From contig CBDHDB010000002.1 of the NCBI GenBank assembly GCA_965261385.1, positions 2,813,096 to 2,877,095 on the forward strand: a stretch of DNA of 64,000 bases, read 5' to 3'. Below are positions 9,911 to 64,000 of the stretch, piece by piece (position 1 is the stretch's first letter; every line of letters begins with the position of its first letter). Below the pieces are notes generated by a model. The model searched no databases and was not told the origin of the DNA. It saw only the letters and a program-made list of their open reading frames with translations. A program made the translations under genes and the position numbers. This DNA is from Dehalococcoidia bacterium. Its GTDB lineage: Bacteria; Chloroflexota; Dehalococcoidia; Lucifugimonadales; Australimonadaceae.

Positions 9911-9932
9911 TCGCGACTCCTCCGGAATGTCG

Positions 9933-10424
9933 TTAGCCGGCTTCGGCGGCGGCCTTCTCAACCGCACGGACGATTTTGTCGTACCCGGTGCACCGGCAGA
10001 GGTTGCCCGCCAGCCAGAAACGGATGCGGCGCTCGTCCGGATGGGGTTCGCGTTCCAGCAAGGCCCGCGCCGCCACTAGGAAACCGGGCGTGCAGATGCC
10101 GCACTGCAGCGCGGCCTCCTCCAGGAAGGCCTGCTGCAGCGGATGCAGTCCGTGGGGCGGGGCCATGCCCTCGATGGTGTCCACCTTCCTGCCGTTCACC
10201 TCAGCCCCGAGTACGAGGCAGGAGTCGACGATCCTCCCATCGAGGGAGACGGTGCAGGCGCCGCAATTTCCGTCGTTGCAGCCCTCTTTCGTGCCCGTCA
10301 GACCAATCGTCTCGCGCAGCGTCTCCAGCAAGGACTGGTATGGCGCGACGAGGAAATCGGTCGGCTGACCGTTGATCTCGCAAGAGACAGGAATCTTGGG
10401 AACGGGGTTGTGGGTTTGTGTCAT
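9933..10424 (-). CDS. (2Fe-2S)-binding small subunit (CoxS-type)
   Basis: 163 aa with the cysteine clusters CNDGNCGACTV and CGICTPG...CRCTGY. Confidence 0.9.
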   Translation of the reverse strand: MTQTHNPVPKIPVSCEINGQPTDFLVAPYQSLLETLRETIGLTGTKEGCNDGNCGACTVSLDGRIVDSCLVLGAEVNGRKVDTIEGMAPPHGLHPLQQAFLEEAALQCGICTPGFLVAARALLEREPHPDERRIRFWLAGNLCRCTGYDKIVRAVEKAAAEAG

Positions 10425-10432
10425 GAGTACTC

Positions 10433-11302
10433 TCAGCGGTTGGCTTGGGCTCTTCCTAGTGCGACGGCGAGCGTCCGGCGGGTGAGGACTTTGACAAGCT
10501 CCACCCGCTGCGCGGGACCGCCCCGCATATCCTCAATGGGAGACGCTTCCGTGGACGCGATTTCGCCCGCCTCGGCAAAGGTCTCCGGCGAGGCTGGCTT
10601 ACCGGCGAGGAAAGCCGACGCTTGGGTCGCGAGAATGGGCGTCGGACCGACGGCGGCCAACGCGATGCGGCCCGACGCGATGGCCCCGGATTCATCGAGG
10701 GTGATTGCGCTGGCCACCCCAGCGATGGCGATGTCCATCTCATTCCGGGGGATGAAGCGCTGGTACGCCGCGCCGAAACCCTTGGCCGGCGCGGGAATCT
10801 CGATCGAGACGAGCAACTCGCCCTCCTGGAGCGCGTTCTGTCCGGGACCCGTGCAGAACTCCTCGATGGGAAGCGACCGCGCTCCGTTCGGGCCTCGAAT
10901 GTGCGCGGCGCCGGAGTGCACGATGAGCGGACAGATGCCGTCCGCGCTGGGCGAGGCGTTGCACAGGTTGCCCCCCAGGCTCGCGCGCGACTGTATCTGG
11001 ATGCCGCCGATGAGGGAGGCCGCGTCGATGATGCCGGGGAACGCTGCGCTGACCGCCTCGTTCTCGTACACCTGATGGCAGGGAACCGCCGCGCCGACGC
11101 TGAGCCCGCCGTTCAACGAGAGGGCTGTCGTTTCAGGGATGCCCTTGACGTCGACGATGGCGTCGATCTCGAATCGTTCGCCCCGCAGCTGCACCAATAC
11201 GTCGGTGCCGCCTGCAAGCGCCTTGGCGCGCGGTCCGTGTTTCGCGAGCGCGGCGATGGCTTCGTCCAAGGTCCGAGCTGCAATGTAATTGAAGGGATGC
11301 AA
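10433..11302 (-). CDS. FAD-binding medium subunit (CoxM-type)
   Basis: 289 aa with FAD-binding PCMH-type motifs (GGTD..V, ASLGGNL). Forms an operon in the order M-S-L. Confidence 0.9.
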   Translation of the reverse strand: MHPFNYIAARTLDEAIAALAKHGPRAKALAGGTDVLVQLRGERFEIDAIVDVKGIPETTALSLNGGLSVGAAVPCHQVYENEAVSAAFPGIIDAASLIGGIQIQSRASLGGNLCNASPSADGICPLIVHSGAAHIRGPNGARSLPIEEFCTGPGQNALQEGELLVSIEIPAPAKGFGAAYQRFIPRNEMDIAIAGVASAITLDESGAIASGRIALAAVGPTPILATQASAFLAGKPASPETFAEAGEIASTEASPIEDMRGGPAQRVELVKVLTRRTLAVALGRAQANR

Positions 11303-11624
11303 CGCTGCTCCGAAGATTATGAGTTTGACGGCTCTGGCCGGTGGCGACCAATTATAACCGCGCCCATTATCACGAAAGGCCCATGCCCCCGCAACGCCAC
11401 TGGCGGACTAGACATGCCGCGTAGCCACGCTCTCGTTCCTTAGAGGCAATCCGGCGTCACTCGCGCATAATGCTCCGATATTCGGCATGGTCGGCCACTT
11501 GCTTGCTACTAGCCGACCATATGGCTACAATGCCGACGCCGCCGCTCCGTCCGCGCTCTAGCTGCTATGGCCAAGCCAAGCGGGCGACGGCTGAGCCGTT
11601 AAGGCTCGAGCCCATTGCGTTCTG

Positions 11625-11912
11625 ATGGAGGTCCCGTTCGTGGCTGAGGAAACGAATCGCCTATTCGTCGGGAACATGCCGTTTAGGATGACCCAGGACG
11701 AACTCTATGATCTGTTCGGGCAAGCCGGGGGGGTGGTGTCGGTGCATATCCCGACAGACCGCGAGACCGGCCGCCCGCGCGGGTTTGGGTTCGTCGAGAT
11801 GGAGACCCCGACCGGCAAGGACCAGGCGGTCCAGATGTTCAACGGATACTCTGTTGAGGGGAGGGCTCTCGTCGTTAACGAGGCCCGGCCTCGAGAGCAG
11901 CGCTCCTACTAA
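11625..11912 (+). CDS. RRM-type RNA-binding protein
   Basis: RNP-2 motif LFVGNM and RNP-1 motif RGFGFVEM. The true start may be the GTG at 11640, which is preceded by GGAGG. Confidence 0.85.
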   Translation: MEVPFVAEETNRLFVGNMPFRMTQDELYDLFGQAGGVVSVHIPTDRETGRPRGFGFVEMETPTGKDQAVQMFNGYSVEGRALVVNEARPREQRSY

Positions 11913-11930
11913 GCGGCCTCTCTCAGGCGC

Positions 11931-11953
11931 CAGCCCGGTCGAAAACCGGGCTG
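11931..11953 (+). terminator. Stem-loop downstream of the RRM gene (cagcccggt/accgggctg), no U-tract
   Basis: Perfect 9-bp stem with a 5-nt loop, read directly from the sequence. The lack of a T-run lowers confidence. Confidence 0.3.
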
Positions 11954-12028
11954 CGGCGGGATTCTCGCCTCCCTAACCCCGCCCTCTTGAAGGGAATCCT
12001 CATGCGGGCCGCGCCTGCCTGTAGCCCC

Positions 12029-13210
12029 TTAGACCGGCATCGCCAAGTCCATGTACTTGAAACCGGAGCCGGTGTTCATCAGCACCGTCTCAGTCTCCGG
12101 CGCCAGGAAGCCGGACTCACGGAGCTTCCTGTAGCCCACCAGCGTCGCCGCGCCCTCCGGCGCCGGCCAGATTCCCTCGGCGGCGCCCATCTCACGCATG
12201 CCGTCCAATATCTCATCGTCCGTCACAGTGACCGCCGTCCCGCCGCTCTCGCGCACCGCATCGAGAATCAGATAGTCGCCGATGGCCGCGGGCACCCGGA
12301 TGCCGGCCGCGATGGTCGCCGCATTCTCCCAAGGCGCGGCGTACCGTTCTCCGTTGTGGAACGCTCGCACTATGGGCGCGCAGCCCTCGGATTGCACGAC
12401 GATCATCTTCGGGCGCTCATCGTCAATCCAACCAAGCCGTTCCATCTCGTCGAACGCCTTCCACATGCCGACTATGCCCGTGCCGCCCCCCGTCGGATAG
12501 ACGATGGCTTCGGGTAGGCGCCACCCCAGGTCCTCGGCAATCTCGTATCCCATTGTCTTCTTACCTTCCACTCGATAGGGCTCCCGCAGAGTGGAAACGT
12601 CGAACAGCCCCAGCTCGGCGGCTTTCTCGCGGGATAGGCGGCCCGCGTCGGATATCAGCCCGTCCACGAGCGTCAGGTGCGCCCCCGCCAGCAAAGTCTC
12701 CTTCTTGTTGGCCTCCGGCGCGTCCTGCGGCATGAAGACGCAGCACTCCATGCCCCCTCGCGCGCAGTAGGACGCCAGCGCCCCTGCGGCATTCCCTGCC
12801 GATGGCGTGGTCAGGCGCATGAGCCCCAGCTCTTTCGCCCGCGATACGGCAGAGGACATGCCCCGCGCCTTGAACGACCCCGTCGGGTTGAGCCCCTCAT
12901 CCTTGATGAAGAGCGTTCGAGCGTCCAACGCGGCCTCCAGCCTCCGCGCCCGGAGCATGGGCGTTCCCCCCTCGCCTAGCGTCACGACGTTCGCCTCGTC
13001 TCTGACGGGCATTAGCTCGAAGTACCGCCATATGCCGCGGGGACGCCCGACGAAAGCCGCCGGATCGACCTCACGCCTTGCGCTTTCGAGGTCGTAGCGT
13101 GGGTAGAGGACCTTTTGTGCGTCGGGAGAGACGCCGTGCGGCTCGTCGGCGCTGTAGGTCCGGCCAGTCTCGGTGCATTCGAGGTGAGAGAGATAGCTTT
13201 TCATGTTCAC
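12029..13210 (-). CDS. thrC: threonine synthase
   Basis: 393 aa with the PLP-lysine motif SFKARG and the typical TS fold-type II layout. Confidence 0.9.
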   Translation of the reverse strand: MNMKSYLSHLECTETGRTYSADEPHGVSPDAQKVLYPRYDLESARREVDPAAFVGRPRGIWRYFELMPVRDEANVVTLGEGGTPMLRARRLEAALDARTLFIKDEGLNPTGSFKARGMSSAVSRAKELGLMRLTTPSAGNAAGALASYCARGGMECCVFMPQDAPEANKKETLLAGAHLTLVDGLISDAGRLSREKAAELGLFDVSTLREPYRVEGKKTMGYEIAEDLGWRLPEAIVYPTGGGTGIVGMWKAFDEMERLGWIDDERPKMIVVQSEGCAPIVRAFHNGERYAAPWENAATIAAGIRVPAAIGDYLILDAVRESGGTAVTVTDDEILDGMREMGAAEGIWPAPEGAATLVGYRKLRESGFLAPETETVLMNTGSGFKYMDLAMPV

Positions 13211-13297
13211 CGCATTCTACGTTCCGGTGAACATGAGATGCGGGACAGGGCTATCCGCCGGGAAAGGAGCGGGGCGACTCTTTTGCCAGGACGCTTC

Positions 13298-13723
13298 CTA
13301 GCCCCGCGTGATCCATCGCCAAAGGCGGGAAGCCGACCCCGACCCAGGGGGGTCATCGAGGACCTGTCCGCGCCACCTGCGCTCGACAGTGCGGCGCGGC
13401 CTCGTGAAGAAGGAGACGTAGGCGATGATGAACAGGGCGACACCGACATAAGCGATGGGCGCGGCGAGGCTGATGCCCATGAGGTTGACATCAATCCAGT
13501 TCACCACCACCGCGACAACGAGCAGGACGACACCGACCTGAAACAGGCGTCCGGGCGTGAAGCTGAACGAGAAGCGGCGCGGTCTGCTGGGGGGCGCGGC
13601 CCGATGCGCCGTGCGCTGCCCGCGCTTGGGGCGACCGGCGCTCTCGTCGGACGCCTCGTCGGACGCATCCTCATTCGCCTTGCCGAGAATCTCCTCGATC
13701 TCGCGCTGATACCGCTGCGACAT
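13298..13723 (-). CDS. hypothetical membrane protein
   Basis: The start at 13723 is preceded by GGAGGAG. Acidic N-terminus followed by two hydrophobic helices. No family was recognised. Confidence 0.5.
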   Translation of the reverse strand: MSQRYQREIEEILGKANEDASDEASDESAGRPKRGQRTAHRAAPPSRPRRFSFSFTPGRLFQVGVVLLVVAVVVNWIDVNLMGISLAAPIAYVGVALFIIAYVSFFTRPRRTVERRWRGQVLDDPPGSGSASRLWRWITRG

Positions 13724-16870: not shown

Positions 16871-18322
16871 TCATACATAGATCTGGAGGGAGGGGGGCTC
16901 CATGAAGGCGAGGGCCAGGGCGTCGGCGCGGTCGGGAGACTTGACGCCACGTTTGCGGAGGCTGGTCTTGCTCTCCAAACGGATGCGCCCGGTGCTCGAT
17001 ATGTCGTAGCGCAGGGCGAGGAGCTGGCTGGCCAGGATCGCGTCGTCCGGGATGTCGATGGCGTCCTCCCGGAGGAGGCGGGCGATCTCCCAGAAGATCT
17101 CGGCGCGCATGTCCACGAACTGGGAGGGGCGTTTCGCCTTCCCGCCAGCCTCCACGCCGATCACCGGGACGCCGAGGACGCCAAGCCTATCGACGACGCC
17201 ACCGCCGACCCCGTTCTCGTCCACGAACACGGCGGGCACGCGGAGGGCGTCCGCCCATGCCTTGACCTCGTCGGCCACCTGCATCGTGTCGAGGCCGCGC
17301 TTGAGGGGGATGAGATGTTCCACGCGAGAGCCGCGGCGGATGCAGATGACGGACTCGGCGTCGCCGAACCGGGCGACGTCGACGCCCATGCGGTAGGGGT
17401 GGTTGAGGTAGTCGCGGTCTATCTCTCCCGCTGGGAGGGGGGAGGGCTGCGAGGTTCCCGCCTGCGCGGGAATGACGGATGGGAACGCGGGGGTGACGGA
17501 TGGGGACGCGGCCATGTCGGAAGGGGAAGAGAGGGGGACGGGGTCGCCGCGCCAGCGGGCGACGGCGCGGTCGACATGGTGGCGCGTGGTGAGAGAGTCT
17601 TCGAGGGCGTCGGGGAAGCGGCCGAGCACCGAGGCGATGTACAGCGGCGAGTCTTCTCCCCAGTCGCGGCGGCGGCGCTCCACGTCCTCGGGGTTGACCA
17701 GGCCAGGGATGTGGAAACGCTTGCGGCGGAAGTTGGGCGAGTCCAGGGCGGAGATCGCTATCCGGTGGTAGAGGGCGGACTTGGAGTGGAAGGACTCGTA
17801 CAGCTCGCCCTCGTGGGAGAGCGGGTTGCCGAGGAGGAGCGCCTTCTTGGGGTTCAGGCGCTTGAGGGCTTCGAAGTAGGGCTGCTTGACGCCTTGGGCC
17901 TCCGTGACGACGACGAGCAGGTTCGGCGAGTGGAACCCTTGCAGGTTGTGCTGGGAGTTGGAGCAGAAGGCGATGGCGAACCGGTCGTCGTCGATGACGT
18001 ACTTGTCCGCGGTCAGCTTGCCGGGCAGGCGTCCGTTGGCCGCGGCGAGGGCGACGCCGAGCTCGTGCCAGAGTATCTCTTTCACCTGGCGAGCTGTCGG
18101 GCCGGTGACGACGGCTTTGGCGTGGGGCCGGGTGTGGAGCCACCAGAGGACGGCGCGGGCGGCGGCCCAGTCCTTGCCCGATGAGTTGGCGGCCACGACG
18201 GAGACGGCAGTGTAGCGGGCGAGGGCGTCGAGGATGGCTTCCTGCTTGTCGTAGGGCTTGCCGGCGTCCTGGAGGACCTCTTTGACGAATCGGGCGGGGT
18301 GGTTCTTGTATTGGGCGAGCAT
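16871..18322 (-). CDS. phage terminase large subunit-like protein (solitary), carrying an in-frame repeat insertion
   Basis: Walker A-like AANSSGKD and Walker B-like LLVVVTEA. RNaseH-like nuclease motifs MGVDVARFGD and SPDRADAL. The ATG at 18322 is preceded by GAGGAAGG. Confidence 0.75.
   Translation of the reverse strand: MLAQYKNHPARFVKEVLQDAGKPYDKQEAILDALARYTAVSVVAANSSGKDWAAARAVLWWLHTRPHAKAVVTGPTARQVKEILWHELGVALAAANGRLPGKLTADKYVIDDDRFAIAFCSNSQHNLQGFHSPNLLVVVTEAQGVKQPYFEALKRLNPKKALLLGNPLSHEGELYESFHSKSALYHRIAISALDSPNFRRKRFHIPGLVNPEDVERRRRDWGEDSPLYIASVLGRFPDALEDSLTTRHHVDRAVARWRGDPVPLSSPSDMAASPSVTPAFPSVIPAQAGTSQPSPLPAGEIDRDYLNHPYRMGVDVARFGDAESVICIRRGSRVEHLIPLKRGLDTMQVADEVKAWADALRVPAVFVDENGVGGGVVDRLGVLGVPVIGVEAGGKAKRPSQFVDMRAEIFWEIARLLREDAIDIPDDAILASQLLALRYDISSTGRIRLESKTSLRKRGVKSPDRADALALAFMEPPSLQIYV
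17423..17515 (+). repeat. Composite hairpin repeat inside the terminase-like CDS (core 17451-17478)
   Basis: Same core as the intergenic copies. It is translated on the minus strand as ...PSVIPAQAGTSQPSPLPAGE... with no stop codon. Confidence 0.85.
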
Positions 18323-18479
18323 GAGCCTTCCTCGACACATAAGGGCCGAGCGGCTCGTCCGCTCTTACTGGGGTGGGGTGTTGCGTCCCATTGTGACGGT
18401 TTCATGACATTTGGTAAATGGGCAGTTGTCACAAGGGGCCTAGGGGGCGCGTGGATTGGCAGGCAGACGCGCAGACCCT

Positions 18480-18615
18480 CTCTCTAGCTCTCATAGGTAG
18501 AACGGGATCACAACGGAAGGGTTCGATACTCATGGCCAGTAGACTTTGCGCTCTAAGGCAGGCAACAGCACCTAAGGCCCTCAGGCGGTTCCAGTCCCCG
18601 ACAGTGGGAGGCGCT
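18480..18615 (+). other. Conserved non-coding element, paralog of 58427-58567 (degenerate tRNA-like 3' part)
   Basis: About 80% identity by eye over roughly 105 nt to the 58.5-kb copy (caacggaa..ttcgatactc..cagtagactt.gcgctct..ggcaggcaacagcacctaa). No convincing ORF. Confidence 0.3.
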
Positions 18616-18741
18616 CCTCCCGTAGTTGTGTCGTTGACGGTCGGCTCAGGCATCGGCGCAGGTCTCGGCAGTCCGCATCTCGCTAGACCAGCTCCTGCAA
18701 CCCAACTAACGTCACCCTCAATATGTATTCTGGATGTAAGA

Positions 18742-20016
18742 CTACGCGAACGGCTTCTCTATGACTTCGTAATCTCCAAGGAACTTGTATGGAGGTATTC
18801 CTTCAACGATGTCTACTTCGCCGTTTGAATACTCTGCATGGGTGATGGACTTGGTCCATCCCGGCAAAGGCTTGTCGGTGTATGGGTTTGAGTAGAATTC
18901 TGCTTTTGCTCTTGTTATCGTCCAAGGATACAGGTCGGAAAACGCTATCACTCCCATGACATGTCGATTCTGAGGCCCTGAGTTGTTGGCCCAAAATCCG
19001 TCGTTCCTTCGGCTAGAGAAGGGACTTTGAAACGTTTCAGCGTTTGCTAGGTGTACGTACGAACTAGACCCTAGTCTACCCAACAGCGCTTCGTCCAGGC
19101 GGTCATCGGTACGGTCACGACGCATGGCGATTATCATGTTTTCCGCGATCTTGTGATGTCGCGCCTTTTCATAGAGCCGAGTCTTCGTCCTGCCTATGTC
19201 GTCGACGGGACTTACTCTAGACGGATATCGCCATATAAACCTTCCAGCTCTTGGACGGTTCTCTGGTAGAACCGGAATCAGCCGACTCATCAGTGTCCAG
19301 TTCCCATGATGAAATGAGCTTGTCGCGAGCAGGTTGGGATTTTGACCACAAAGCATGTAAGAGCGAAGCTAGTCGTTATAGTCCGTCTCCCTTATCAGTT
19401 CTTCGAAGTGGCATTTCAGTTGCTGTTTGGTAGGGAGTGATTCCAATTTCCCTTGGGTTTCGAGGTGCAAGACAAAGTCAGGCAAAGAAATCTCATTCAG
19501 GGTGTCCCAAACCGACAGTTCTAGTTGGTCCCTTTCCAAGGCGGTGCCACTTTCCAAATCGATGTTGGTGGCTTCAACTACGTAAATGAATTGAGTTCCA
19601 TCTTGGACGTTCACCTGAACTCTAAAATCTAGTAGGTGGCTCCTAAGAGAAGGTTGGGCCTCCACCGGATCGCCTGTACCATTCAAGAATTCATGCAAAA
19701 ACAGCTCAAAGAATGCAGCATAAAAGGCCTTGTCATTTATTCTTGATCCAGGTCCTTTGTGGCGCATGGGGCCTACAAGCATGCGCTGGTGCTCGGACGG
19801 GAATCGGTCGACCCAACGCTGAAGCATAGACCGCACTCGTTCATATTCAGGGAGCGAAGAACGATCGAGAAAAGCGTAGACTGACTCAACGCTGCGCGAT
19901 GGTTCGATGTAGTCCCTGGGTTTGTCGTCGAATAGTCGGACTATGAGATTTCTCCAAATGACAAAGGCGCTTGTACTCCGCTCCCGCCAGCACTCCCACG
20001 ATAGTTCTACAAGCCG
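18742..20016 (-). pseudogene. Decayed low-GC gene of unknown function (in-frame TAG at 19369-19371, no start codon for the upstream 60 codons)
   Basis: ORFs 19369..19836 and 18742..19356 are in the same frame, separated by a single TAG. The frame stays open upstream to 20016 without an ATG, GTG or TTG. GC content is clearly lower than in the flanks. Confidence 0.45.
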
Positions 20017-20099
20017 TTATATTACATTGATAAGCATGGGAACAGAGTCAGCGGGCATGAGGGTCTCAGTCGTGACAGACCTTTGCATGGTGGGGACTA

Positions 20100-20815
20100 C
20101 GACCGGTTGCGGGCGAACGCTTTTCCTCCCCCGAGCGTCGCTGCGCTGGCGCGTCCCCTCTCGCAGACGGGCGGGGTTTCCTGGATTCCCGTTTTCGCGG
20201 GAACGACGGGTGGGGGGAGGGGTGCTGACGGCGGGCGAACGTTTCTCCCTCACCCGCGCTGCGCGCGACCTCTCCCGCTGGGAGAGGTGAGGGGCTGCGA
20301 GGTTCCCGCCTGCGCGGGAATGACGGGAGGGCGCCGGGATGACGGAGGGGCGCGGGAGGGGAGGCTGCGAGGTTCCCGCCTTCGCGGGAATGACGGGTTG
20401 GGTTTGGGGTGACGGGGGTAGTTGCGGGCGGGGCGTTCTCCTTCCCCGCGCTTCGTTGCGCTGGCGCGTCCCCTCCCGCAGACGGGCGGGGGGTTCCTGG
20501 GTTCCCGCTTTCGCGGGAATCTCTCACGTTGGCCTATCGGCCAACACCACAACCGACGAAAATAGGGGCTGGAGGACGGAGCGAGGGATCGCGGTGCTGT
20601 CGCCCCGCTACGAGGTTCCCGCCTGCGCGGGAATGACGGAAGGGGGCGTGGGTGGCGGGGGTTAGTTGCGGGCGAACGCTTCTCCTCCCCCGCGTTTCGC
20701 TGCGCTGGCGCCTCCCCTCCCGCAGACGGGCGGGGAGGGCTGCGAGGTTCCCGCCTGCGCGGGAATGACGGAAAGGGCGCGGGAATGACGGAAAGGGCGC
20801 GGGAAATGACGGGAG
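20100..20815 (+). repeat. Dense cluster of six composite hairpin-repeat units
   Basis: Cores at 20183 (variant), 20299, 20369, 20499 (truncated), 20612 and 20744, plus extra gcgggaatgacgg partial copies. The modules between cores are themselves repeated elsewhere in the window. Confidence 0.9.
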
Positions 20816-49924: not shown

Positions 49925-50395
49925 CCCTGCCCCTCCCCTCCGTCATTGCCTCGAAAATAGACGCCCACGCCCCCTCCGTCATTCCCGCGCAGGCGGGAAC
50001 CTCGTAGCGGGGCGACAGCACCGCGATCCCTCCCCGCGCCCCAACCGTCTTCCCACGCCCCAACCGTCATTCCCGCGAAAGCGGGAATCCAGGTATCGGC
50101 GTCCGCTCGCCTATTTTCCTTGGTTGTGGTGTTGGACGAGGCCAACATAGGGGATTGCCTCGAAAATAGACGCCCACGCTCCCCTCCCGTCATTCCCGCG
50201 CAGGCGGGAACCTCGCAGCGGCGCGACAGCGGCGCGGTCCATCCCCCTCTTCCCGTCTGCTCCGGTTCTCCCCACCGTCTGCGGGGGAGAGCTAGAGAGG
50301 GGGCCGCCCCACTCGCCACTTTCGTCCGTTGTGGTGTGGAGCGTTGGCCCGTCTGCGGGGGAGAGCTAGAGAGGGGGCCGCCCCGCCAACCAGGT
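49925..50395 (-). repeat. Second cluster of composite hairpin repeats, inverted orientation
   Basis: Cores at 49976-50003, 50064-50090 and 50187-50214 (ccgtcattcccgcgcaggcgggaacctc), plus cccgtctgcggggg hairpins at about 50255 and 50350. Confidence 0.9.
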
Positions 50396-58215: not shown

Positions 58216-58390
58216 ATGATGCGAAAATGACATGGTGGGAGCAGCCGGAGCGGCGCCCAGTGAGGGCGGAATCGGCGCCGCTCCGGCGCATCGCACGACC
58301 GCAAAGGCTTGTTTTGCCTCAAGATGTGTCATCCATTCACTCGTAACTTCCCCGGCCTACGAGTGGACGAGGGCTGCCTCTCGCAAAAAC

Positions 58391-58420
58391 GGTCTCATTT
58401 GGTCGCATTTGGTCGCATTT
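58391..58420 (+). repeat. Three tandem 10-bp units (ggtctcattt ggtcgcattt ggtcgcattt)
   Basis: Read directly from the sequence. The period equals one helical turn. Lies immediately upstream of the tRNA-like element. Confidence 0.7.
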
Positions 58421-58426
58421 GCTCCT

Positions 58427-58567
58427 GGCGGAACCACCCCTAGCCCCTCCATGGACAGGAGGCAATCGCAACGGAAAGCTTCGATACTCGTGGGCAGTAG
58501 ACTTGCGCTCTGGGGCAGGCAACAGCACCTAAAGGTCCTCACGTGGTTCGAGTCCCCGCCAGGGGCC
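58427..58567 (+). other. Conserved non-coding element with a tRNA-like T-arm/acceptor-like 3' end (better-preserved paralog of 18480-18615)
   Basis: cgtGGTTCGAGTCCccg followed by ccagggg. A possible closing helix forms between ggcgg-aaccac (58427-58437) and gtggtt...ccgcc (58543-58560). It does not fold as a canonical tRNA. Confidence 0.35.
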
Positions 58568-59331
58568 TATTTTGACGATAGACAGAACCATCTTCGAGAT
58601 GTGGCTCGTCCTGGCAGGCTCGCCAAAGGCTGTCACTGCAAGATGACAACGAGGGCGGCGGGGGCGGCAACAATGCCGCCCATGCTCGCGGTCAGACGTC
58701 GTCCCGCATCGTCAACATTCGTAGTACACAATCGACACGAAAAACTCAGGTGCTCGTGGGCGGTGGATCTGAAGGCCGCCAAGTACGGACAGTCTGATGG
58801 TCACGGTTCCTGCCCCTTCGGCATCCGATAGCCGACGGGCGGCTCCTGAAGGGGTGCGTGGGCTTGTCCGCGTCCTCGCCCAGCTAGCGGGGGAACTGCT
58901 TCACCGCATGTGCGGACGCTCCCCCTGCCGTCGGTGTGTCCAATGCCCCAGGCCGCTCAATGGCGAGCTCAGCGAAAGGAACCCGAGTGTCGCTCATGTA
59001 CTGGACGAGTACAACGTATTTGACACACGGCCTTGCCTGTGTAGACTGGCGCTTGGCGCGTCCGAGAGGGTCTCACTCGATGATTGATCTGTCCGGCATA
59101 CACCGTCCGCCCCTGCGCGCGGGCATTGCCTACCGGCCTGGCTAACACCGCCGGCTTGCCGACCACCACGTGGCTGGATCGCGGCGCTTCGTCCCATTCG
59201 CCTCCACTATAGTTTGACCGTCATCCCGCCCCGGTGGTCTCCTGATATACCGCTCCGGTGTTTGCCGCGTGCGCGATACGCCATAGCGCGGGCACCCCGA
59301 GAGCGTGAGCCATCCAAACGGGAGGACTCGC

Positions 59332-60450
59332 ATGGCGTCGCCGGTGCAAGCAGTCTCGTCACTCTACGGGGGGTTCTGGAACTTCGAGCTCCAGGACTTC
59401 TGCTACATGACGAACCGGTACTTCCCTCCCGCCGGCCTCATTGGCGAGCTCGCATCGAGCCTTCCCGAGCTCGTCAAGTCGTACCCCTCGACGAACCGTC
59501 ACCTCTCGTCGCTCGTTGCCGCGCCCCTCGGCCTCACCCACGAGCAGGTCGTCGTTGGGAACGGCGCGGCGGAGATCATCAGCGTCCTCAGCGGTCTGCG
59601 CGTCGAGCGCCTGGCCGTGCCCATCCCGACGTTCGACGAATACCCCAACCGCGCCGCCGTCCAGGGCAAGCCCGTCAGTCGTTACCCCACGGACGCTGAG
59701 TTCGTCCTGGACGTCGACGGGTTCATCGCGCACGTGGCGGAGACTGGCGCGAACGCAGTGGTCCTCATCCGGCCCAACAACCCATCAGGGACGCTCATCC
59801 CCAAGAGCAGCGTTGTCGATATGCTCCAGGCCTTCCGCCGCCTTGACCTAGTCGTCATCGACGAGTCGTTCCTCTACTTCGCGTCGCCCGACTGGCCGCA
59901 GCTGAGCGCGTTGAGCCTCATACACGAGTTCCCGAACCTGGTCATCGTCAACAGCATGTCGAAGGCCTACGGCGTGCCGGGGCTCCGGCTGGGCTACGCC
60001 GTCTCCGGCGACGCCGCCCTCGTCGCTCGCCTGCGCGCCGAGCTCCCCATCTGGAGCGTGAACTCGCTTGCGCAGCTGTTCATCGAGCGCGTCCAGCGAT
60101 ACGAGGCCGAGTTCGCCGAGTCCTGTGTACTCGTGACCCGTGCGACACAGGCCCTCTACGAGGGACTCCGGACGGTCCCCTTCCTCCACCCGTATCCGAC
60201 CCACGGCAACTACGTCCTCTGCCGCACCTCGCCCGAGCTTAGCGGGGCGGAGGTCACCGCTCGCCTGTTTGACGAGCACCGGGTGCTCGTCAACGACTGT
60301 AGTCGAAAGCAAGGACTCGACTATAGGTTCTTCCGCATCGCCTCGCGGACAACCGAGGAAAACGAATGGCTGGTCGGCATTCTCCGCACGATGGCGGCCG
60401 GCGAGCCGCGAGCGCTCCGCTCGGCCGCGCCCGACGGAGTTAGTAGGTAG
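59332..60450 (+). CDS. class I/II PLP-dependent aminotransferase/decarboxylase (HisC/CobD-like)
   Basis: NPSGTL and SMSKAYGVPGLRLGY motifs. The ATG at 59332 is preceded by GGGAGG. Confidence 0.8.
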   Translation: MASPVQAVSSLYGGFWNFELQDFCYMTNRYFPPAGLIGELASSLPELVKSYPSTNRHLSSLVAAPLGLTHEQVVVGNGAAEIISVLSGLRVERLAVPIPTFDEYPNRAAVQGKPVSRYPTDAEFVLDVDGFIAHVAETGANAVVLIRPNNPSGTLIPKSSVVDMLQAFRRLDLVVIDESFLYFASPDWPQLSALSLIHEFPNLVIVNSMSKAYGVPGLRLGYAVSGDAALVARLRAELPIWSVNSLAQLFIERVQRYEAEFAESCVLVTRATQALYEGLRTVPFLHPYPTHGNYVLCRTSPELSGAEVTARLFDEHRVLVNDCSRKQGLDYRFFRIASRTTEENEWLVGILRTMAAGEPRALRSAAPDGVSR

Positions 60451-60455
60451 ACGTC

Positions 60456-61253
60456 ATGCAGGCAGTAATCCTCGCAGCGGGACAGGGCACGAGACTCCGT
60501 CCATTCACCAACGAATGCCCCAAACCCCTGGTGAGCGTTCAGGGTAAGCCCATGCTGTACTACCAGCTCGAGGCGCTCGACGGGGCGGGCGTTCGGGAGT
60601 GCGTGATCGTCGTAGGCTGCTGCGCCGACCTGGTCCGCGAGACCATCGGCGCCCGGTTCGGCAACGTCGCCATCTCCTACGTTGAGAACGACATATACGA
60701 CCGGACGAACAACATCTACTCGCTCTGGCTGGCGCGGCGAAGCATCGTTGACGACATCCTGTTGCTCGAGGGCGATCTCGTCTTCGAGCCCGGCCTGCTG
60801 CTTGACCTGCTCGACGCGCCCTATGACAACGTCGCCGTGGTTGACCGCTACGACTCCACCATGAACGGGACGGTCATCCAAGCGGCTGGCGACCTGGCAA
60901 CCGCCATGGTGCTCAAGGCGGACCAGCCCCCCGATTTCGACTACGGCTCCGCGCTCAAGACGGTCAACATCTACAAACTCTCGGGTAGGGCGGTGCGCTG
61001 GCAGGTGATGCCGTACCTCGATGAGTACATCGCGCGGGGCCAGACTAGCCACTATTACGAGATAGCCTTCGCACGCGCCATTGCCGACGGCTCGTTGCGC
61101 ATGCACGTGCTCGGCACGGGCCCACGGTGGTGGACGGAGATCGACAACGTCGATGATCTACGCCACGCCCAGACCATGTCGCTGCTGCCCACCCATCGCC
61201 CGCGCTCCGGGCTGACAGCACAGCGCGGCCCAGTAGGGAGGATCGTGCGATGA
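60456..61253 (+). CDS. LicC-like sugar/phospho-alcohol nucleotidyl(cytidylyl)transferase
   Basis: AVILAAGQGTRLRP..PKPLV, and NNIYSLWLA, which is typical of the LicC/phosphocholine cytidylyltransferase group. Confidence 0.8.
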   Translation: MQAVILAAGQGTRLRPFTNECPKPLVSVQGKPMLYYQLEALDGAGVRECVIVVGCCADLVRETIGARFGNVAISYVENDIYDRTNNIYSLWLARRSIVDDILLLEGDLVFEPGLLLDLLDAPYDNVAVVDRYDSTMNGTVIQAAGDLATAMVLKADQPPDFDYGSALKTVNIYKLSGRAVRWQVMPYLDEYIARGQTSHYYEIAFARAIADGSLRMHVLGTGPRWWTEIDNVDDLRHAQTMSLLPTHRPRSGLTAQRGPVGRIVR

Positions 61254-61990
61254 CTGAGCGCGACGCCGCCGGAAGGGCGGAGATTGACCAGCTGATAAGG
61301 ACCATCCCGCCCATGGACGTCACGGTGGCGGCGGAACTCCTCCGGGAGGCGAAGGAGGTCTTCGACGAGCAAGGAGGGGTGTTCTTCCTGAGGCAGGGGA
61401 CCTGCCTTGGAGCCGTCCGCGACGGCGCCTTCATTACTTGGGACGACGATATCGACCTCGGCTCCATCTACGGGATGCACGGCCTAACCAAGCGGTCGGT
61501 CGCGTCGGTGGCCGACGCCTTCAGGGCTCGCGGATTCCACGTCGAGACGGCAACGTACGGCGGCGAGTCGTGGCTCGGGGTCATGAAGCGCCACATACGG
61601 ATCGACTGGCTTTGCTACCGCGTCCGCAAGGGCCACATCGTCCACTTCCCGAACGTGTCGATTCCGGCGGAGCTGTTCACCCGCCTCGAAGAGATCGACT
61701 TCGTCGGCGAGAGGTTTCTGGTACCGAGTCCGCCTGAAGAGTACCTCCGCTGCAAGTACGGACCGCACTGGGCGACGCCCAAGCGCATCGGTTACGAGAA
61801 GGACGTCGTCGATAACCTCCCGGCTGAGCAGCCTGCTTGGCCTCGGCTCCTCTGGCGGTTCCTCGCGGCCCGTCTTGCGGGCAGAACGGCTGTGCTTCAA
61901 TATGGGAAATCCTGGTCTTACAGCCTATGGGCCTGCAACTTTGCCCACCAAGCCTTGGCCCGGGACTCCGGGCTGCCCATGGGCGCGTAG
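61250..61990 (+). CDS. LicD family phosphotransferase
   Basis: LRQGTCLGAVRDGAFITWDDDIDLG is the LicD signature. Confidence 0.8.
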   Translation: MTERDAAGRAEIDQLIRTIPPMDVTVAAELLREAKEVFDEQGGVFFLRQGTCLGAVRDGAFITWDDDIDLGSIYGMHGLTKRSVASVADAFRARGFHVETATYGGESWLGVMKRHIRIDWLCYRVRKGHIVHFPNVSIPAELFTRLEEIDFVGERFLVPSPPEEYLRCKYGPHWATPKRIGYEKDVVDNLPAEQPAWPRLLWRFLAARLAGRTAVLQYGKSWSYSLWACNFAHQALARDSGLPMGA

Positions 61991-62017
61991 AGAACCAACG
62001 GACAAGAGGATATCTTC

Positions 62018-63124
62018 ATGCAGAACGGCGACCACCTGACCATACGCGGCAAGCGGTTTCACTACACTTGGCTGCGCGACCATTGCTTGTGTCCTGAGTG
62101 CTTCCACCAGGACTCCTCGCAAAAAATCTACGACATAAGCATGGACCCGGTTCCCCCGGAACCGCGGTCCGTGGAAGAGACCTCCTCAGAGCTGCGCATT
62201 TCCTGGAACGGAGCCCAGCCCCACGAAAGTGTATTTCCCATCCATTGGCTGCTTGAACATTCCTACGACCCCTCGCCGGGTCCCGAGCAGCCCAGCGAAT
62301 CGGCCCTGTGGGATGCGGCTTACATGGACGCCCATCCGCCTGGATTTTTCGATGCTTCCTCCACTCCCTTTGAGTCGTGGGGCCGGCAACTTGCTGCCCT
62401 GGGCTTGGCAGTAATTCACAACCTTCACCACACCGAGCTGCATACTTGGGTCACGGACATCGCCCCGATACACCTCACTGAGTACGGCGTCACTTGCCGG
62501 GTTAGGCCGACGCCCGGAGCCAAGGACCTGGCCCTGTCCAACGCCGGTGACAGCCTCTTGCCCCACACCGATGGCTCTTATAGGTGGGGAGAAAGGCTGG
62601 TGCAGTTCCTCTGCGCCCGCAGCAACACGACGTCCGGAGGCGACACAATCCTTGTAGACGGGTTCCGCGTGGCCCGGGACTTTCGACTGCAACATCCTCG
62701 CGCGTTCGACCTGCTGGCCTCAACTCGCATACAATTCCGCCAATATGACAGGCAGGCCGGATATCTGTTCAAGCATTCCACTCCCCTTTTGCTCCTCGAT
62801 AATGGAGGGGAAGTCGAAGCCGTCTGCTATTGTCCCAAGAACCTTGACTGGCAGCTTCCCTTCGACCAGGTGGAGGAGTATTACCGGGCATACAGACTCT
62901 TCTCCAGCTGCCTCAACGACCCCCAGTACCAATATCGGTTCCGGTTGGAGGAGGGCGACTGCGTGATCTTCCAGAATTTCAGGGTCCTCCACAGCCGCAG
63001 CAAATACGACCCAGCCTCAGGAGACAGGGACTTCGAGACCGGCTACGTTGACTGGAGCTACGTAGCTGCGCGCCTCGAGTACCAGCGCGTCAAAGGCTCA
63101 AGGCAGCCTTCGGGTGCGGCCTGA
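62018..63124 (+). CDS. Fe(II)/2-oxoglutarate dioxygenase of the gamma-butyrobetaine hydroxylase/TmpA type
   Basis: N-terminal zinc motif RDHCLCPEC..H, plus HTDGSY (HxD) and VLHSR (distal His). GC content is lower than in the neighbouring genes. Confidence 0.8.
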   Translation: MQNGDHLTIRGKRFHYTWLRDHCLCPECFHQDSSQKIYDISMDPVPPEPRSVEETSSELRISWNGAQPHESVFPIHWLLEHSYDPSPGPEQPSESALWDAAYMDAHPPGFFDASSTPFESWGRQLAALGLAVIHNLHHTELHTWVTDIAPIHLTEYGVTCRVRPTPGAKDLALSNAGDSLLPHTDGSYRWGERLVQFLCARSNTTSGGDTILVDGFRVARDFRLQHPRAFDLLASTRIQFRQYDRQAGYLFKHSTPLLLLDNGGEVEAVCYCPKNLDWQLPFDQVEEYYRAYRLFSSCLNDPQYQYRFRLEEGDCVIFQNFRVLHSRSKYDPASGDRDFETGYVDWSYVAARLEYQRVKGSRQPSGAA

Positions 63125-63412
63125 GTACGCCGGTTCCCCAGTGCAAGAGGACCTGTTCTACCGCGCCATCAATTAATTGCTGGAGCCAAGCGCATCTAGA
63201 GGTCGTACGATGCCATGGCAAACAGCCGCCGGAGACGGCCTACGGCGAATTAGGTTAGGCCAATTCCTGACTTGAGGTGATTCCCACTGATACCATGGCA
63301 GCATAACCGAGTGACATTTCTGTCGGCCACTTAAACGGACATTTATCCTGAACAGCGACACCCTAATGGTCCAACTTCCGTCCGCCCTTGACACAACGGC
63401 CGGGGCGGACTC

Positions 63413-63553
63413 TTGTCCGACAAGCCCGACCATGAGCTGTATGCAGAGCTCCGGCAAGAGATATTCGGAGGCAAGCCTCTTCCTGGGAATCCCGCCGACT
63501 TGATCCGGGAGGCCCGTGAGATCAGGGATGCGGAAATCGAGAGGTGGGCATGA
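63413..63553 (+). CDS. possible antitoxin remnant
   Basis: 46-aa TTG-initiated ORF whose stop overlaps (ATGA) the following short PIN-like start. Confidence 0.2.
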   Translation: MSDKPDHELYAELRQEIFGGKPLPGNPADLIREAREIRDAEIERWA

Positions 63554-63624
63554 ACGGGTTCGTGGTGACCGATGCAAGCCTGGCGCCCGAGCCCAGGGCT
63601 GGTAGCGCTGCGCAGCCACACTAG
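63550..63624 (+). pseudogene. possible truncated PIN (VapC) N-terminus
   Basis: MNGFVVTDASL... resembles the start of a PIN domain, but the ORF stops after 24 codons. Confidence 0.2.
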
Positions 63625-63634
63625 GAGGAGCGCG

Positions 63635-64000
63635 ATGAGTGAGTGCGACGCCGCCGGGAGTGCGGAGATGGACCAGCTGATGAGGACCACCCCGCCGATG
63701 GACGCCACCGTGGCAGCGGAGCTCCTCCGGGAGGCAAAGGAGGTCTTCGACGAGCTGGGGGTTGTGTTCTTCCTGAGGCAGGGGACCTGCCTCGGGGCGG
63801 TTCGCGATGGCGCCTTCATCCCTTGGGACGACGATATCGACCTCGGCTCCATCTACGGGATGCACGGCCTAACCAAGCGGTCGGTCGCGTCGGTGGCCGA
63901 CGCCTTCAGGGCTCGCGGATTCCACGTCGAGACGGCAACGTACGGCGGCGAGTCGTGGCTCGGCATCATGAAACGCCACATAAAGATCGACTGGTTCTGC
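63635..64000 (+). CDS. second LicD family phosphotransferase (partial, runs off the window)
   Basis: The ATG is preceded by TAGGAGGAG. Paralog of 61250-61990, with a 141-nt tract (63823-63963) identical to 61438-61578. Confidence 0.8.
   Translation, partial: MSECDAAGSAEMDQLMRTTPPMDATVAAELLREAKEVFDELGVVFFLRQGTCLGAVRDGAFIPWDDDIDLGSIYGMHGLTKRSVASVADAFRARGFHVETATYGGESWLGIMKRHIKIDWFC

Follow-up and report, generated by a model that had tools for sequence, protein, structure and literature searches.

A candidate kinase-free head-group operon with a recently inserted dioxygenase, carried in a multi-context 6.6-kb unit of Dehalococcoidia

Introduction

What brings together, in a single bacterial operon, enzymes that activate and transfer phosphocholine-type head groups and a dioxygenase of the gamma-butyrobetaine hydroxylase (GBBH) family? 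The question is raised by one end of a 64,000-nucleotide (nt) stretch of DNA from a Dehalococcoidia bacterium (contig CBDHDB010000002.1, positions 2,813,096 to 2,877,095), which was analysed at its full length and is called the window here; positions are those of the window unless a locus is named, and L-numbers denote the related loci and contigs used for comparison. Five head-group genes, all co-oriented on the + strand, run from 59332 to the window end. The first encodes a pyridoxal phosphate (PLP) enzyme of the CobD/HisC fold (59332–60450, with the longest open reading frame, or ORF, starting at 59305; Pfam Aminotran_1_2, E 3.6e-30) and the second a nucleotidyltransferase of the LicC/PntC family (60456–61253; Pfam NTP_transferase PF00483 and NTP_transf_3 PF12804, above cut-off). 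The start of the third, encoding LicD1 of 246 amino acids (aa) (61250–61990; Pfam LicD), overlaps the stop codon of the nucleotidyltransferase gene. It is followed by the gene of a TauD-fold Fe/2-oxoglutarate (2OG) dioxygenase of 368 aa (62018–63124; TauD E 3.3e-33 and GBBH-like_N) and by the 5' part of the gene for LicD2 (63636–64000), which continues past the window end and encodes 301 aa in related loci.

An earlier reading of the sequence alone, made without database searches, had placed these five genes and named their families, and the Pfam searches bear it out. It had also proposed that the five genes work together on a hydroxylated or otherwise unusual phospho- or phosphono-amine decoration. 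Our analysis separates the two halves of this proposal. A CobD-type enzyme that feeds the activation and transfer of a head group remains the best reading, since the PLP enzyme and the nucleotidyltransferase are co-conserved and LicD is linked to them in this clade; a dioxygenase conserved as part of the pathway is not supported. We regard as probable, with some reserve, a head-group operon of the Lic or Kennedy type that needs no kinase, with a recently inserted dioxygenase, in a unit of 6.6 kb that occurs in many contexts.

The co-conserved core of the operon

The PLP enzyme and the LicC-like nucleotidyltransferase are a genuine, widely co-conserved pair. JGI metagenomes were scanned with an alignment of nucleotidyltransferase homologs, and neighbouring genes were identified by tblastn; in 54 of the 80 loci obtained the PLP gene adjoins the nucleotidyltransferase gene, and most of the others are too short to judge. 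The PLP gene comes first in relatives at 45–63% identity and lies downstream of the nucleotidyltransferase gene in relatives at 31–44%. Named sources of the nucleotidyltransferase homologs are metagenome-assembled genomes (MAGs) of Dehalococcoidia and Chloroflexota; the sample label of one homolog, ROBB21, suggests sponge-associated MAGs, a hint that applies to this homolog and not to the sample of the window. When the genes around the pair were scanned with Pfam in the 22 long loci of the 80, the commonest flanking family was the cytidine diphosphate (CDP)-alcohol phosphatidyltransferase (9 proteins), whose gene is the next one downstream, in the same orientation, in 8 of the 22, and LicD, methyltransferases and GT4 glycosyltransferases came next with 3 each. 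A PLP–nucleotidyltransferase–LicD arrangement without the dioxygenase is found in L014 (nucleotidyltransferase 65% identical) and in L015 (90%, on a 3.49-Mb contig), with LicD of 301–302 aa. This three-gene module is widespread and apparently uncharacterised: full-text searches of a paper library returned no description of a pathway that joins a CobD-like enzyme to a cytidylyltransferase, and to our knowledge the PLP–nucleotidyltransferase pair, common in environmental Chloroflexota-like contigs, has not been characterised so far.

The modules with a CDP-alcohol phosphatidyltransferase (L032, L036, L054, L058, L068, L073, L088 and L091) encode small transferases of 196–236 aa with the motif DGxxAR...GxxxDxxxD, and in L032 an S-adenosylmethionine (SAM) methyltransferase sits within the module. 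These eight may represent a bacterial Kennedy-like route, in L032 perhaps toward a methylated head group.

CobD (L-threonine-O-3-phosphate decarboxylase; TIGR01140) is the top-scoring NCBIfam model for the PLP enzyme with 192.8 bits (cut-off 290.55), as against 156.8 for hisC. The top PDB matches, 6oux and 1lc5, are both phospho-amino-acid decarboxylases of the same fold and rank above the HisC structures. We take 6oux to be SMUL_1544. An SxSK lysine motif is typical of the CobD/SMUL_1544 class, and SMSK is present in the window enzyme. SMUL_1544 is described as an L-serine-O-phosphate decarboxylase (Keller et al., 2016, as cited in PMC6461909). Judging from these matches the PLP enzyme is a probable phospho-amino-acid decarboxylase, which differs from both relatives in its score below the equivalog cut-off, in the absence of any cobamide context and in its LicC-like partner.

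The nucleotidyltransferase carries AAGQGTRLRP, in agreement with the N-terminal GxGxR signature, and has LicC as its top PDB match (1jyk, E 1.5e-16, or 3.8e-29 with a profile of 25 homologs). Enzymes of the LicC family activate phosphocholine or 2-aminoethylphosphonate (AEP), with a selectivity that is mainly steric (PMC6697681). The window enzyme is probably the cytidylyltransferase for the product of the PLP enzyme: given a CobD-type partner and CDP-alcohol transferases or LicD as neighbours, it would most simply make a CDP-activated amino-alcohol phosphate. One relative stands apart, P0082 of 378 aa, which is 81% identical to the nucleotidyltransferase over 87% of the query and has only methyltransferase among its recorded Pfam domains, which a fusion or an artefact of the reading frame could explain.

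A predicted route to the head group

In the Lic pathway (LicA kinase, LicC and LicD) of Streptococcus pneumoniae and Haemophilus, CDP activation is followed by transfer of the head group to a glycan, and the present operon resembles it in having a LicC-family gene followed by LicD. It differs in that it has no choline kinase or transporter (neither the licA kinase nor the licB transporter was found in the unit or in the related loci) and in that a CobD-type PLP enzyme stands in the place of the kinase. The head group is therefore probably synthesised intracellularly, with a phospho-amino acid as its source, and in place of choline it is probably a primary amine. No kinase would be needed in such a route because the phosphate would enter with phosphoserine or phosphothreonine. 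The sequence-only reading had likewise seen no phosphoenolpyruvate (PEP) mutase, choline kinase or glycosyltransferase, and within the 6.6-kb unit neither a PEP mutase motif nor a kinase nor a glycosyltransferase was found. With the CDP-choline/CDP-ethanolamine (Kennedy) pathway the operon shares the logic of a cytidylyltransferase and a phosphotransferase, as in the eight modules described above; it differs in having LicD as the transferase in the clade of the window and a decarboxylase, not a kinase, as the first enzyme. A Kennedy-type route composed of LicCA and a choline phosphotransferase is known from Treponema denticola.

We infer a route of three steps. The CobD-type enzyme would decarboxylate a phospho-amino acid, most likely O-phospho-L-serine to phosphoethanolamine, or alternatively phosphothreonine to aminopropanol phosphate. 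The LicC/PntC-like enzyme, as its family and gene linkage suggest, would combine this product with cytidine triphosphate (CTP) to give a CDP-amino-alcohol, and LicD would then move the phospho-amino-alcohol onto a surface glycan or glycolipid.

The operon of the window has two candidates for this last step. LicD1 (PF04991, 48.6 bits with a cut-off of 22.6) keeps KYG and WDDDID, both invariant in the LicD alignment and the latter an acidic DxD-type motif, and its catalytic domain is whole. Its residues 1–217 duplicate LicD2, its last 29 aa are unrelated, and it misses the ~85-aa C-terminal domain of LicD2 and the orthologs. At the DNA level 61197–61900 matches 63584 onward, the duplication comprising the last 53 nt of the nucleotidyltransferase gene and the first ~650 nt of licD, and the 5' parts of the two licD genes are ~90–93% identical. 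LicD1 is thus a partial duplicate; its gene call is shortened in some copies, where indels are present, and the full-length LicD2 is likely the working copy.

The dioxygenase as a recent insert

The dioxygenase is not an original member of the operon but a very recent insert. It lies in a 1.7-kb segment (61901–63583, + strand) that is absent from L015, and none of the 80 loci carries the dioxygenase. Its 1107 nt are the same in the window and in L001, L003, L004, L005 and L006, with a single difference in L002; in the same copies the flanking genes differ by up to 1.5% (PLP enzyme), 3.9% (nucleotidyltransferase) and 4.6% (LicD1). The identical tract, ~9846–11118 in the coordinates of L003, corresponds to the dioxygenase, and the copies with the whole 1.7-kb segment (L001, L003, L004 and L006) show 3–4 base differences over that segment as against 17 in the next 250 nt. 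Zero differences amid diverged flanks indicate an insert of more recent date than the DNA around it, which has spread across operons of diverged background, and the duplicated licD arms would make a spread by homologous recombination possible. The dioxygenase thus arrived as part of a 1.7-kb insertion, by which the licD 5' region was duplicated, and was then passed on unchanged through diverged copies of the operon. The gene is intact in most copies. L018, a contig 99.9% identical to the window, is the sole frameshifted exception: one indel splits the dioxygenase (1588–2695) into ORFs of 111 and 243 aa, which may be a genuine inactivation in a single strain or may come from an error of assembly.

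A second arrangement is found in L100, a circular contig of 2.83 Mb whose nucleotidyltransferase is 94% identical to that of the window. The order there is PLP enzyme, nucleotidyltransferase, dioxygenase and LicD (301 aa), with neither the long licD duplicate nor the short ORFs that follow the dioxygenase in the window. The L100 dioxygenase starts at the stop codon of the nucleotidyltransferase gene and is fused to LicD codons 1–15, a junction unlike that of the window; at the DNA level it agrees with the window gene to 99.5%, in an operon that is otherwise 88–94% identical. The association therefore recurs within the clade, by the evidence of this copy in a diverged operon, which partly rescues the idea of integration and leaves room for a tailoring role. 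The recurrence may reflect either selection on genes that function jointly or a site at which insertions are tolerated, with about even odds.

Other orthologs lie away from the PLP–nucleotidyltransferase module, at 69%, 73% and 81% identity; for a further ortholog at 79%, P0003, a look-up gave no record. The 69% ortholog adjoins a glycosyltransferase in a transposase-rich cassette, one ortholog stands alone, and that at 73% is near genes of the PEP-mutase family. The cassette (L007–L010, ~7970–13420) holds the 69% ortholog and a Caps_synth/Gly_transf_sug glycosyltransferase between two DDE_Tnp_1_4 fragments and recurs in at least four contexts, one of them on a circular contig of 67.5 kb. The two PEP_mutase-family genes near the 73% ortholog were considered as a lead to phosphonates and set aside, both having EDQ and not the EDK...NS of Ppm.

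The sequence-only reading had combined the dioxygenase with the module, and had itself named what would tell against this, namely an insertion between duplicated licD genes with no co-conservation elsewhere. Such an insertion of 1.7 kb is what we find, together with a module that elsewhere lacks the dioxygenase and orthologs in other contexts, so that a conserved five-gene pathway is refuted on that reading's own terms. Two short overlapping ORFs on the + strand at ~63400–63625, seen in the translation and absent from L100, had been taken for a remnant of a toxin-antitoxin (TA) system. Their ends look VapB/VapC-like, an impression that neither family nor BLAST matches back: NCBIfam gave no match, and BLASTP against the antitoxin of a related locus gave nothing.

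The substrate pocket of the dioxygenase

The nearest characterised relatives of the dioxygenase in PDB are DfmD, TmpA and GBBH at 28–35% identity, and its scores lie below all equivalog cut-offs (NCBIfam TmpA, NF049936, 213.6 with a cut-off of 400; GBBH, TIGR02409, 187.6 with a cut-off of 414.75). The trimethylammonium pocket of GBBH is formed by an aromatic cage of Y177, Y194 and Y366 with the asparagines N191 and N292. An alignment to human GBBH, whose numbering is used here, confirms the zinc N-domain and the HxD...H triad that had been read from the letters: the CxCxxC...H zinc motif, H202/D204/H347 and the 2OG arginine R360 are all kept. Common to the window enzyme and to DfmD, TmpA and GBBH are thus the TauD fold, a zinc N-domain, the iron triad, the arginine that binds 2OG and, of the three tyrosines in the cage, Y177 and Y366. 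It differs from them in having Leu at Y194 and Asp at N191, in the deletion of the Asn pair at N292 and in having no TmpB/PhnZ partner in the unit. This "DLALS" version of the pocket is found throughout the clade, including cyanobacterial homologs at ~44%, and the Tyr is kept in distant GBBH/TMLH-like sequences. The loss of the cage Tyr and of the Asn pair makes a quaternary-amine substrate, such as the trimethylammonium compound that had been suggested, doubtful. The more likely substrate has a primary amine, and an aminoalkyl phosphate or phosphonate of this kind would be a reasonable guess. DfmD and TmpA both act on trimethyl-AEP (PMC9296572).

The cyanobacterial homolog that was examined comes from Moorena (44%), where the dioxygenase gene is followed by that of a 183-aa HD protein with PhnZ and TmpB as its top PDB relatives. 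In L102 and L103 (7339–10483) the order is methyltransferase, dioxygenase, HD protein and CmcI-type methyltransferase, and the cluster adjoins a ~3180-aa gene as well as sulfotransferase and short-chain dehydrogenase/reductase (SDR) genes. A tblastn search with the Moorena HD protein found an HD-domain (TmpB/PhnZ) partner neither in the window nor in the other loci.

A 6.6-kb unit in many contexts

The operon belongs to a block of ~6.6 kb that is mobile or multi-copy. The exact dioxygenase protein is found on six contigs of three assemblies with unrelated flanks, to which further look-ups added two more contigs, and the exact window proteins are also present on a 2.89-Mb contig. The shared unit, at 97–99.9% identity by blastn, extends from ~58430 to ~1 kb past the window end and corresponds to 6408–13014 of L001. 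At least seven left-hand contexts were counted: an Hdr-like gene in the window and L018, a major facilitator superfamily (MFS) gene in L001, a luciferase-like gene in L002 and L004, adh_short with F420 genes in L003, DUF4349 in L006, ATP-binding cassette (ABC)/IS3 genes in L019, and a context of its own in L005. L004 joins the left flank of L002 to the right flank of L001. In most contigs the unit lies at or near the contig end; in the contig most like the window, that end falls within the unit. Its left edges vary among copies (58227, 58396, 58427–58433 and 58821), and no transposase or integrase lies within it.

Direct copies of a ~150-nt repeat, here called M, form the edges of the unit and are ~86% identical to each other. 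The left copy is at 58418–58566 (+ strand; identity boundary 58427–58433 in L001 and L003), and the right copy is seen in the related loci only. Its conserved core, TCCATGGACAGGAGGCAATCGCAACGGAAAGCTTCGATACTCGTGGGCAGTAGAC..., lies between imperfect inverted arms, which measure 20–26 nt in the best-preserved copy; GGGGACTCGAACCAC occurs on both strands at the M ends, the arms are degenerate in several copies, and the right-hand copy folds with a closing stem of 20 bp. Most M copies are followed by a segment that we call ext, TTGACGATAGACAGAACCATCTTCGAGATG..., placed by alignments at 58567–58640 (+ strand) in the window. In L003 the order is M, operon, M, the gene of a 1110-aa Cache-repeat protein and again M, and in L002 a second copy stands ahead of transporter genes. 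At the place where L001 carries M, L015 has an uninterrupted junction between a palindrome and ext, which agrees with M as an inserted element. In L001 (12822–12860) the palindrome, near-perfect and ~37 nt long (CCCTATAGGGCCGCTCATATGTGAGCGCCCCTATAAG), is found directly to the left of the right-hand M; in L015 it flanks the operon on both sides (8373–8419 and ~12000–12040).

A second, diverged copy of M lies elsewhere in the window (18477–18657, + strand; blastn 85–87%, nhmmer E 3.9e-38). Its neighbours are an orphan terminase-large-subunit-like gene (16871–18340, − strand; PHROG 2, E 2e-35) and a low-GC segment of ~1.4 kb (18620–20060) with two minus-strand ORFs of 204 and 155 aa and no family match; the 2-kb bin that holds this segment (18001–20000) has a GC content of 0.55 as against ~0.66 for the window. 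Public collections gave one GTDB match to M, in the Dehalococcoidia MAG OZ244741.1 just upstream of an insertion sequence (IS), and this MAG and L001 have an IS segment in common that is 98.7% identical; there were no matches in JGI metagenomes, IMG/VR, plasmids or phages. Like the named MAG sources of the nucleotidyltransferase homologs, this match points to a host in Dehalococcoidia or Chloroflexota. M was also considered as a structured RNA, tRNA or tmRNA and on the present data rejected as such, with no match in Rfam (E<=1 and gathering threshold) or ARAGORN; the folds obtained for five copies are inconsistent with one another and of ordinary stability.

From its sequence M reads as an element resembling a miniature inverted-repeat transposable element (MITE). 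The unit is comparable to MITE-flanked composites and cassette arrays in its multi-copy repeat of ~150 nt, the imperfect inverted arms, the related allele without the repeat and the direct copies that bound a cargo found in multiple contexts. It differs from them in having neither transposase nor integrase, in its variable left edges and in the target-site duplication, of which no unambiguous case was found at M. Left of M there is a further module of 190 nt (58227–58417, no strand assigned; delimited by blastn boundaries and alignment), with a perfect hairpin of 14 bp, a second hairpin of 8 bp and three tandem GGTCGCATTT repeats, which is common to L002, L004 and partly L006 and is missing in L001 and L003; its appearance is that of a site for protein binding or of the end of an element. 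GC-rich hairpins of the type CTCTCCC...GGGAGAG occur at several junctions of the unit, for example in the left flank of L001.

Promoter, leader and other features

The operon is preceded by a promoter-like site, TTGACA-16-TAGACT (59020–59047, + strand; 10/12 in a consensus scan), that is conserved in the related operons at 90–94% identity (L015, L100 and L019), and by a conserved 5' leader of ~285 nt (59048–59331, + strand) that by alignment is kept in operons whose genes are only 90–94% identical. A riboswitch in the leader was considered and found no support: the same leader in L001 has no Rfam match (E<=1), and the z-score of its fold is +0.7. Elsewhere in the window, a PyrR binding site (RF00515, 24394–24509, + strand) scores 54.9 bits, just above the gathering score, and secondary blastn matches show a repeat of ~70–93 nt in three copies (20583–20652, 49945–50035 and 50154–50246).

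Alternative explanations

Several observations weigh against a Lic- or Kennedy-type operon with a dioxygenase tailoring its head group. The PLP enzyme is under the cut-offs of both CobD and HisC and could be a transaminase, making for example serinol phosphate. The nucleotidyltransferase aligns confidently with LicC over residues 2–125 only, and its C-terminal half, the choline-box region in LicC, is unaligned. LicD is present in only 6 of the 80 loci, and the unit contains no glycosyltransferase. As for the dioxygenase, phosphoethanolamine hydroxylated at either carbon would be unstable, which is easier to reconcile with catabolism than with a decoration, and the pairing of the Moorena homolog with a PhnZ/TmpB-like HD oxygenase is the arrangement of oxidative C–P cleavage pairs. 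We weigh the role of the dioxygenase apart from that of the operon. Its presence in the operon in two different arrangements suggests that it draws its substrate from the operon's own pool of amino-alkyl phosphate head groups, and we give this about an even chance.

The alternative that survives best, although in our estimate it falls somewhat short of even, makes the dioxygenase an accessory gene with no relation to the operon, for instance a scavenger of aminoalkylphosphonates or betaines from the environment, that landed in a well-expressed operon and spread via the licD arms. Its position within an insertion between duplicated licD genes, the identity of the insert in diverged backgrounds, and the orthologs that occur in transposase-rich cassettes or alone all agree with such a history, as does the cyanobacterial pairing with an oxygenase like PhnZ or TmpB. 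Against it, the gene has come to lie twice inside the same operon with different junctions, and an HD-domain partner as in Moorena is missing from the window and from all the other loci.

A tentative place is left for the integrated pathway of the sequence-only reading, in which the five genes act together and the dioxygenase hydroxylates the free or CDP-activated head group to yield a hydroxylated phospho- or phosphono-amine decoration. This would explain why the gene lies between the nucleotidyltransferase and licD on the same strand in two arrangements, directly at the nucleotidyltransferase stop codon in L100, and why it is intact in most copies, L018 being the one with a frameshift. The glycosyltransferase beside the 69% ortholog points the same way, and the partial loss of the quaternary-amine cage suits a head group with a primary amine. 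Head groups of 1-hydroxy-2-aminoethylphosphonate do occur in nature. The pathway is weakened by the absence of the dioxygenase from the 80 loci and of the module from the neighbourhood of the 73–81% orthologs, by the youth of the insertion, which does not allow selection to be judged, and by the chemical instability to be expected of a hydroxylated phosphoethanolamine. A phosphonate version would need a Ppm gene, and a regular-expression search for its EDKxxxxxNS signature in six-frame translations of the window and of 103 loci gave 0 matches, which leaves the phosphonate option of the sequence-only reading without support from the gene neighbourhood.

This negative bears equally on a Pnt-type phosphonate cluster, in which the PLP enzyme would transaminate to AEP, the nucleotidyltransferase would be PntC, LicD would transfer AEP and the dioxygenase would be PhnY*/TmpA-like. 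In its favour, the nucleotidyltransferase profile matches the PntC domain of 6pd1 over its full length (residues 2–246), LicC-like enzymes do activate AEP (PMC6697681), and the nearest characterised relatives of the dioxygenase act on phosphonates. With no Ppm signature found, with EDQ in the PEP_mutase genes beside the ortholog, and with a PLP enzyme of the CobD/HisC class, whereas 6pd1 has its PntC joined to an AEP transaminase of class V, we consider it improbable. That the pair are enzymes of the cobamide nucleotide loop, CobD and a CobY-like guanylyltransferase, is very improbable: CobD is the top NCBIfam model and the nucleotidyltransferase also matches the MobA-like NTP_transf_3, but its closest structural relative is LicC, the partners are LicD or CDP-alcohol phosphatidyltransferases and not cbiB or cobS, and there are no cobamide genes in the unit.

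Implications

Taken all together, the locus could represent an undescribed and widespread kinase-free route from phospho-amino acids to CDP-ethanolamine-type head groups, with a hydroxylated surface decoration made by the dioxygenase, in an operon that is the cargo of a non-autonomous element recombining at M. In this joint form the claim is doubtful, and we rate the kinase-free operon with a recent insert considerably higher. If the PLP enzyme supplies the phospho-amino-alcohol, these bacteria would build their head groups from central metabolites, without uptake of choline or ethanolamine. The dioxygenase insert offers a clean natural case in which one gene has swept through operon copies that had diverged from each other, and the unit with its flanking repeat a tractable case of the movement of a metabolic operon without an obvious transposase.

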